From Escherichia coli (lineage in GTDB: Bacteria > Pseudomonadota > Gammaproteobacteria > Enterobacterales > Enterobacteriaceae): 691 nt of DNA. Every line of letters begins with the position of its first letter. Position 1 is the stretch's first letter. Location: assembly GCF_003334765.1 (NCBI RefSeq), contig NZ_QOWT01000106.1. One strand, given 5' to 3'. The translations under genes were made by a program, and so were the position numbers. The notes under the pieces are model-generated. The model saw only the letters and a list, made by a program, of their open reading frames with translations. It had not been told where the DNA came from and did not search any database. This document shows, piece by piece, positions 1 to 691 of the stretch.

Positions 1-691
1 ACACGCGCCTGGTTACCCATACACAGGGAACAGCCAGGGATCTCGATACGCGCACCACTCTTACCGAAGACGCTGTAGTAGCCTTCTTCGGTCAACTGTG
101 CGGCGTCCATACGGGTTGGCGGTGCCACCCACAGGCGGGTCGGCAACTGACCTTTATGCGCATCCAGCAGTTTACCCGCAGCACGGAAGTGACCGATGTT
201 GGTCATGCAGGAACCGATAAACACTTCGTCGATCTTCTCGCCCTGTACCGCAGACAGCGGACGCGCGTCATCCGGGTCGTTCGGAGCACAGAGGATTGGC
301 TCTTTGATATCCGCCAGATCGATGTCGATCACTGCCGCGTATTCCGCATCTGCATCGGCTTCCAGCAGCTCAGGATTCGCCAGCCATTTTTCCATGCCCT
401 GAATACGGCGTTCCAGGGTACGATGATCGCCGTAACCTTCCGCGATCATCCACTTCAGCAGGACGATGTTGGAGTTCAGGTATTCGATGATCGGTTCTTT
501 GTTCAGCTTGATGGTACAACCGGCAGCAGAACGCTCGGCGGACGCATCGGTCAGCTCAAAGGCCTGCTCAACTTTCAGATCCGGCAGACCTTCAATTTCC
601 AGGATGCGGCCAGAGAAGATGTTTTTCTTGCCTTTCTTCTCAACGGTCAGCAGACCTTGTTTGATCGCATACAGCGGAATAGCGTGTACCA
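1..691 (-). CDS. acnB: Aconitate hydratase B (aconitase B; bifunctional aconitate hydratase 2 / 2-methylisocitrate dehydratase), internal fragment truncated at both ends by the window
   Basis: Manual translation of the reverse complement gives an uninterrupted frame of 229 complete codons (codon n at plus-strand coordinates 690-3n to 692-3n; first complete codon 687..689, last 3..5; partial codons at 690..691 and 1..2). The peptide starts [231 protein letters not shown] recognise this as the catalytic region of enterobacterial AcnB, including the aconitase-family Fe-S ligand motifs SCMTN and [11 protein letters not shown]. Codon usage is typical of a well-expressed E. coli gene (CTG Leu, CGT/CGC Arg, GGT/GGC Gly, AAA Lys, GAA Glu). 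Identification is from recall, not a search. Confidence 0.95.
21..32 (-). other. acnB: Codons for predicted [4Fe-4S] cluster ligand cysteine pair (C-S-L-C in motif [13 protein letters not shown]), within acnB
   Basis: Plus-strand aca at 30..32 and aca at 21..23 are minus-strand tgt (Cys) codons separated by Ser-Leu, in the conserved aconitase motif [12 protein letters not shown]. They lie 59 and 62 residues downstream of the first ligand Cys, matching the family C-x58-C-x2-C spacing. By recollection these are Cys769 and Cys772 of AcnB. Confidence 0.75.
207..209 (-). other. acnB: Codon for predicted [4Fe-4S] cluster ligand cysteine (first of three; in motif [11 protein letters not shown]), within acnB
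   Basis: Plus-strand gca at 207..209 is minus-strand tgc (Cys), in frame within the motif [13 protein letters not shown]. The aconitase family uses one Cys in an S-C-M/T-T-N context plus a downstream C-x2-C pair as cluster ligands. If my recollection of AcnB numbering is right this is Cys710. Confidence 0.75.

Follow-up and report, generated by a model that had tools for sequence, protein, structure and literature searches.

An internal acnB fragment of Escherichia coli as an exact patchwork of the native allele and a rare island paralogue

The window, i.e. the whole stretch of 691 nt of E. coli DNA analysed here, consists of internal coding sequence of acnB, the gene of aconitase B. Its minus strand carries a single open frame of 229 codons at positions 1-689, with no stop codon and exceeding the window at both ends; the remaining two minus-strand frames are stop-rich. 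When the translation was compared to PDB sequences with phmmer, the best match was 1L5J_A (E. coli aconitate hydratase 2), aligned over residues 550-778 of the 865-residue protein with an E value of 2.2e-151 and identical in 228 of 229 residues. In NCBIfam, the fragment matched profile positions 540-767 of TIGR00117 (acnB) with 460 bits, and NF006690 was matched as well. The TIGR00117 score lies under the full-length cut-off because just 229 of 865 residues are present; a full-length AcnB encoded on a genomic island, described below, scored 1716 against a cut-off of 1287. Pfam assigned the translation of the window to the Aconitase family (PF00330), and the full-length island and native genes showed Aconitase_B_N, Aconitase_2_N and Aconitase, the N-terminal domains being encoded outside the window. 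An earlier sequence-only reading had placed the whole window inside acnB on the minus strand, at approximately residues 550-778 and with near-100% identity, and these predictions were matched to the residue.

Compared to K-12 AcnB (b0118; PDB 1L5J), the sole amino acid change is R638H, where codon 638 reads CAT (His) at 423-425 on the minus strand. The Fe-S ligands are the same. Cys710 (codon at 207-209, minus strand), Cys769 (30-32) and Cys772 (21-23) are all intact, with the latter two lying in the motif GCSLCMGN at 21-32 on the minus strand; these three cysteines are the [4Fe-4S] cluster ligands in the 1L5J structure. The product of the window would be part of a [4Fe-4S] dehydratase for the interconversion of citrate, cis-aconitate and isocitrate and for the hydration of 2-methyl-cis-aconitate. 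The protein is AcnB, which is already known, and the knowledge of aconitase B gains nothing from the window itself.

The plus strand also holds a stop-free frame of 229 codons (3-691), a feature left unmentioned in the earlier reading. An overlapping antisense protein would be conceivable from the length of this frame, and we consider it extremely improbable. A stop in this frame corresponds to TTA, CTA or TCA in the acnB frame, codons that do not occur in the window, and all of 5,000 synonymous permutations of the window likewise kept the plus frame open. Furthermore, the antisense translation gave no family match in NCBIfam, and the same frame contains 5-6 stops in full-length E. coli genes and 28 in a Klebsiella oxytoca paralogue. 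The openness is fully accounted for by the missing codons, as a by-product of codon usage, and the candidate antisense gene was rejected. Scanning the window with Rfam returned one chance-level match (24.8 bits against a gathering threshold of 60), and the repeat scan merely found a trivial imperfect repeat. Besides the acnB fragment, the window thus contains no further gene, RNA or meaningful repeat. Nor does it contain a novel system, a point already made from the sequence alone.

Annotated acnB was matched at 95% identity or more in all 5,426 complete E. coli genomes, and the exact sequence of the window was absent from every one of them. The closest matches came from 23 genomes at 99.4-99.6% (3-4 mismatches), each with two acnB places, and all of these matches were to a second acnB located on a genomic island. 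The other 5,403 complete genomes (best match below 99%) differ by at least 7 mismatches; the nearest native acnB among complete genomes has 7 and K-12 has 9. A 107-mer of the window used as a pattern was found in two metagenome contigs with native alleles 14-16 mismatches from the window, and gave no match among viral contigs or species-representative genomes. As for a plasmid-borne acnB, the ‘plasmid’ matches turned out to be chromosome-sized or very large E. coli records (~0.4-4.9 Mb) with native-type alleles of at most 98.7% identity, and this candidate was discarded.

Thus, the plain housekeeping reading first given to the window is unsupported as stated, since its 23 closest DNA matches are island acnB genes and 541 nt of it are identical to an island allele. 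The sequence-only reading had also pointed to the lack of a compositional break. This part stands in itself (GC between 0.49 and 0.62, without a break), but the absence of an island context does not follow from it, because island acnB consists of E. coli-like sequence. The near-perfect protein match to a core enzyme masked a DNA sequence patched together from two paralogues.

To describe this patchwork, positions are given on the sense strand, where column 1 corresponds to window position 691, so that columns 1-541 are window 151-691 and columns 453-691 are window 1-239. The first tract, at 151-691 on the minus strand, is identical to the island acnB of strain 746 (WP_001596151.1, NZ_CP023353.1 917273-919870) in 541 of 541 nt, with an identical protein fragment including His638, and the window showed no mismatch over these positions to L001 and L003-L011 either. 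It carries the island state at all nine sites that differ from K-12 (window 552, 525, 522, 471, 424, 408, 306, 291 and 240). The second tract, at 1-239 on the minus strand, is identical to the common K-12-type native acnB, so that the nine nucleotide differences from K-12, R638H included, fall in the other 452 nt and all match the island paralogue. Within this second tract, the window differs from the strain 746 island gene at three synonymous sites (window 150, 146 and 99; columns 542, 546 and 593), where it has the native state and where every 746-type island copy differs. Both parents are identical in the interval 151-239 (minus strand), in which the haplotype switches according to the alignment and the site table. 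The window has no mutation that is missing from both parents, and the order of the 9 + 3 informative sites corresponds to a single breakpoint (P = 0.009). Altogether, the window is fully accounted for as a patchwork of two E. coli acnB alleles that are already known.

The distribution of His638 was analysed with an exact 48-mer around this codon, which is blind to His638 alleles with a second nearby SNP. It was present in 24 complete genomes, consisting of 21 with an island copy and three with remnants, and those coordinates that were checked lie in island copies. In an exact-protein look-up, K-12 AcnB with R638H alone was found in eight contigs at native loci (lpd, yacH, acnB, yacL, speD, speE). 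The contigs L030, L032 and L033 carry His638 on markedly different native backgrounds, and the 51489-type island acnB has Arg at 638. His638 is present on several native backgrounds and is therefore not diagnostic; its use as an island-specific marker was rejected. Substitutions common to all three island types were identified outside the window, i.e. the ATG start, E3K, I71V, G858R, Q862P, T863S and A864V.

Further acnB mosaics exist. L031, a 205-kb SPAdes contig with native flanks on both sides, has 2 mismatches to the window, fewer than every island copy. This contig, too, is a perfect mosaic, composed of K-12 and the 746-type island allele (50 + 34 = 84 informative sites, without private changes). 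L029, located at the native locus of a 208-kb scaffold, consists of three segments, namely nat746-type, about 700 nt of island type and again nat746-type, with no unexplained difference. Both reciprocal island/native hybrid AcnB proteins were found by exact-protein look-up. Joins across the two loci were detected as well, with the gene order citX-citG-acnB-yacL in L036 and yacH-acnB-IS66 in L037. All mosaics found are in short-read or metagenome assemblies. Among the complete genomes, we found neither a native acnB with an island tract (the mosaic region of L031 reached 99.4% at best, and 99.2% in K-12) nor an island acnB with a native patch.

These observations bear on whether the window could simply be the housekeeping acnB of a lineage that is absent from complete genomes and has no island, the island allele having been copied from such a lineage. 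Every E. coli has the native acnB, as compared to approximately 0.6% for the island copy. Native alleles are themselves polymorphic for His638 and several of the ‘island-type’ states, the island alleles of acnB demonstrably consist of native-type sequence, and the nearest sequence, L031, has native flanks with just 2 mismatches. However, 5,403 complete genomes lie at least 7 mismatches away, L031 itself is an exact mosaic of K-12 and island sequence, unlike what would be expected of an independent old lineage, and the window has no private mutation while its ends abut two sites that distinguish the parents. We therefore consider an ordinary native allele rather unlikely.

This position of the window ends points to a different origin. 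At both bases flanking the window, namely T/C at column 0 and A/G at column 692, the 746-type island allele differs from the native one, in a comparison with three native alleles from complete genomes. The chance of both flanks being such parent-distinguishing sites is approximately 5e-4, for a coincidence that was spotted post hoc. It is the signature of a path in an assembly graph running between two unresolved bubbles in a sample with both sequences. For a fragment of 691 bases, the fact that all mosaics found come from short-read or metagenome assemblies tips the balance to paralogue collapse or chimerism during assembly. There is consequently, in our estimate, an even chance that the window is a short contig of an assembly graph, built from short reads of E. 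coli, or of a sample containing E. coli, in which the native acnB and a 746-type island copy would have been locally collapsed or chimerically joined. The source probably carries both acnB copies, as judged from the sequence.

Several points weigh against such an assembly fragment. The coincidences on which it is built were found post hoc; L031, with its native flanks and 2 mismatches, leaves room for the window being a genuine allele of the native locus; His638 is not specific to the island, and column 692 is polymorphic among native alleles. The 229-aa product of the window is also not indexed as the product of a stand-alone contig in the large assembly collection. Fragments of this kind can pass for novel alleles in MLST, cgMLST and SNP-based analyses.

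Following up the window brought to light that some E. coli carry a second cit-acnB operon, which is rare and mobile; strains with the module include 746, MS14384 and O157:H16 Santai. In the case of strain 746, the second acnB is the last gene of a module composed of a divergent HutC-type GntR regulator, an Amidohydro_2 protein (WP_000575589.1), an MFS transporter (WP_001596154.1), citCDEFXG and acnB. An integrase, IS66, IS21, IS3 and ISL3 elements and toxin-antitoxin genes are located in the region around it. The full 10.9-kb module was identified in 31 of 5,426 complete genomes (~0.6%), and approximately 38 of the 5,426 have two acnB copies. At least three island backgrounds harbour it, and in each of them both ends are bordered by transposase genes or remnants of these. 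Three more genomes retain only a 744-nt 3′ remnant beside an IS110 transposase fragment, adjoining the kps capsule locus in both of the two that were inspected. In the large assembly collection, the exact island AcnB protein occurs in 351 blocks, and in all nine places listed it directly follows citG. Scanning three island loci for tRNA genes as a possible integration site revealed none, and the signals in a promoter and terminator scan of the operon were no better than those of shuffled sequences.

Relatives of the operon were found in Enterobacter, Klebsiella oxytoca and E. fergusonii. The same operon is present in an Enterobacter chromosome, where it aligns without interruption over 8.4 kb, across the citG-acnB junction, at 79% identity; its acnB is a remnant of the first 42 codons. 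The K. oxytoca relative is composed of citCDEFG-oadGAB, a CitMHS transporter, three aconitases, PrpF and Iso_dh, and one of its aconitases is a divergent AcnB paralogue with 73% identity. Compared to the native E. coli locus citAB/citCDEFXG-citT, the island has the same complete set of citC-D-E-F-X-G genes (97.8% identical). It differs in being devoid of the CitT antiporter and of the CitA/CitB (DpiB/DpiA) two-component system, and in adding the divergent HutC-type GntR, the LigI-like Amidohydro_2 and the MFS gene upstream and acnB downstream. We found no account of the island acnB, of this operon or of its wider cluster family in a literature search, and RefSeq annotates the operon gene by gene only, so that it seems to be undescribed. 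The term ‘AcnB2’ in PMC3210124 denotes the AcnB dimer.

Important insight into the history of the module can be gained from the edges of its homology to K-12. The cit block begins 6 nt within citC, ends 19 nt ahead of the citG stop and is 97.8% identical; the acnB block begins at the second base of the start codon, ends 8 nt beyond the stop and is 96.8% identical. In the last 35-45 nt at each block edge, the divergence rises, as estimated by eye, to approximately 20-25%, after which similarity is gone. In a three-way comparison, the interiors of the island cit genes showed 90-100% identity to K-12, with island and K-12 equally distant from Enterobacter (70-88%). The island segments outside the cit block, comprising the 3′ end of the MFS gene, the citG-acnB junction and the initial ~140 nt of acnB, share 70-90% identity with Enterobacter and lack a counterpart at the K-12 cit locus. 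As the operon and the citG-acnB junction are common to Enterobacter, the acnB of the module predates the split and was later overwritten by native-type sequence in E. coli. That IS elements recently captured the native cit and acnB genes, as the 97-98% identity of the coding sequences might indicate, was rejected, because homology ends at the edges of the coding sequences with diverged ends and because the Enterobacter operon is found at 79%.

Exchange between the island and native copies was then assessed in complete or chromosome-level genomes with the three island types. Genes without a native counterpart diverge by 0.0-0.8% among these types, whereas island acnB diverges by 2.8-4.0% (odds ratios of 7-12, p = 4e-14 to 3e-24) and the island cit genes by approximately 2% in one type. 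Overall, the divergence of acnB and cit is roughly tenfold that of the genes unique to the operon, an excess that demonstrates long-term exchange with the native copies. The differences between island acnB and K-12 comprise 75 synonymous and 7 non-synonymous changes; being overwhelmingly synonymous, they indicate that island acnB is under purifying selection. In strain 746, island and native acnB differ at 88 sites without an unusually long identical run (P = 0.21), implying that the exchange is episodic rather than continuous. These patterns are reminiscent of tufA/tufB, which stand for concerted evolution of duplicated bacterial genes: here, too, recombination keeps two diverged copies in one chromosome similar, so that they are homogenised inside and diverged at the edges. 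Unlike tufA/tufB, one partner is located on a mobile island in less than 1% of strains, and exchange carries native polymorphism into the island copy.

With such a history, the window might be a real allele, formed by gene conversion (non-reciprocal homologous recombination) between island and native acnB in a two-copy cell. This would have produced either an island locus with a native patch at columns 542-593 or a native locus with an island tract at columns 140-452. The excess divergence of acnB and cit among island types is what such conversion would leave behind, and so are the 96.8-97.8% homology that decays at the edges of the coding sequences and the Enterobacter operon at ~79% with its acnB remnant; the clean three segments of L029 show such a mosaic at a native locus within a 208-kb scaffold. 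Real exchange over evolutionary time means that a genuine recombinant is not far-fetched, and this counts against the assembly fragment. On the other hand, neither hybrid form occurs in the 5,426 complete genomes, including the ~38 with two copies, the two genes of strain 746 do not share an unusually long identical run, and every mosaic found stems from a short-read or metagenome assembly. One conversion event alone also leaves the position of the window ends at parent-distinguishing sites unexplained. Altogether, we regard a true recombinant allele as possible but on the unlikely side, and a collapsed or chimeric assembly path remains the reading that we prefer.

In the case of the island operon, gene content suggests a metabolic role. 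The best solved relatives of the amidohydrolase are 2FFI (231 bits) and 4I6K, from the LigI/COG3618 lactonase group (Amidohydro_2). Its motifs DTHAH, VDHF and GSDWPH align with DAHCH, IDHM and GTDWPH of LigI (4D8L), which places the HxH motif, a conserved His and the catalytic Asp in register with those of LigI. In NCBIfam, the amidohydrolase gave a sub-cut-off match to 4-sulfomuconolactone hydrolase (137 bits against 500). The MFS transporter gave sub-cut-off matches only, to organic-anion and organophosphate transporters from the MFS superfamily. In the relatives, the GntR-lactonase pair lies beside CitMHS-family (citrate-type) transporters, citrate lyase, oxaloacetate decarboxylase and PrpF, with an isocitrate/isopropylmalate-type dehydrogenase and up to three aconitases in the same neighbourhood.

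From this gene content, a pathway of four steps can be proposed. Firstly, the MFS transporter would import a tricarboxylate or its lactone. Secondly, the lactonase would open the ring. Thirdly, the island AcnB would isomerise the product to citrate, and lastly citrate lyase would cleave citrate to oxaloacetate and acetate. Isocitrate lactone, aconitate or a hydroxycitrate-type lactone, for instance, are speculative candidate substrates. Regarding regulation, PMC4150767 describes RyhB and apo-AcnB as acting on the native acnB mRNA at the RBS region and the 3′UTR. The island acnB has neither the native RBS region nor the native 3′UTR, and it would consequently be regulated with its operon, unlike the housekeeping gene.

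Taken jointly, the window may mark a strain with an apparently undescribed mobile operon that would take up a tricarboxylate or lactone, convert it to citrate by means of its AcnB and split it by means of its citrate lyase, and whose cit and acnB genes would evolve in concert with the host copies through gene conversion; this combined reading is tentative and stays below an even chance. The operon is a natural example of an island paralogue that was overwritten by a housekeeping gene and is possibly also a donor to it, and it suggests a candidate trait of tricarboxylate/lactone catabolism in extraintestinal and commensal lineages. The island operon is of modest interest with regard to the evolution of paralogues and to accessory metabolism.

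It can be added that the two acnB copies of strain 746 are inverted and roughly symmetric about the start of the record, which is apparently near the replication origin. In this arrangement, they may mediate chromosomal inversions.

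The two bases that directly border the 691-nt stretch may bear on its origin. When the window is numbered along the acnB coding strand (column 1 being window 691 and column 691 being window 1), these bases fall at sense columns 692 and 0, and at both the island acnB of the strain 746 type differs from the common native alleles. The chance that both bordering bases are such difference sites is about 5e-4. The coincidence suggests that the 691 bases represent an assembly-graph path lying between two unresolved paralogue bubbles.

Two contigs are hybrids of the island and native loci. 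One carries citX-citG-acnB-yacL (acnB at 2451-5048 of locus L036) and the other yacH-acnB-IS66 (acnB at 4001-6598 of L037), thus each joins the island locus to the native locus and the two are reciprocal. Strain 746 has its two acnB copies in opposite orientations. They flank the record start, apparently close to the origin, at distances of about 918 kb and 972 kb. The hybrid junctions are exactly those that would be expected from a real ori-symmetric inversion; a misassembly would give the same junctions.

The island acnB itself varies between E. coli strains. In strain SWHEFF_58 (L013, 12001-14598), it differs from its 746-type counterpart by 4.0% and from K-12 by 4.7% (123/2598), with 13 amino-acid changes, while the other module genes diverge from the 746-type module by only 0.0-0.7% per gene. 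This acnB seems to have been swapped in from an unusually divergent donor. In three complete genomes the island acnB is reduced to a 744-nt 3' remnant with an adjoining IS110 transposase fragment. The two remnants inspected (7331-8074 in both L020 and L021) adjoin the kps (group 2 capsule) locus and an island segment with malX/agaR.

Outside E. coli, the gene is lost from the Enterobacter version of the operon, where only the first ~42 codons are kept 3' of citG (L022, 17447-17594; L023, 9092-9239), and the following ~1.3 kb contains one called ORF of 52 aa in L023 and none in L022. In Klebsiella oxytoca, a large cluster (L024/L025, 1-20795) comprises an aconitase (645 aa), PrpF, a second aconitase (754 aa), an Iso_dh-type dehydrogenase and an AcnB of divergent sequence (862 aa), followed by GntR, then a LigI-like lactonase, a CitMHS transporter, citCDEFG and oadGAB. 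This gene content has the appearance of an island dedicated to tricarboxylate catabolism. E. fergusonii (L026) shows a related arrangement, plus a second lactonase of the PF10282 type.

Within the window, the plus-strand frame at 3-691 is free of stops over 229 codons but does not represent a gene; it stays open because the sense strand uses no TTA, CTA or TCA codons. A sub-threshold Rfam match to the Pseudomonas PA5194 thermometer within the coding sequence (window 250-339, minus strand; 24.8 bits, where the gathering score is 60) was regarded as chance. Finally, several acnB-carrying ‘plasmid’ records in PLSDB (rows H118-H124) are chromosome-sized or very large replicons of 0.4-4.9 Mb, apparently chromosomes, or parts of them, that were assigned the wrong replicon type.
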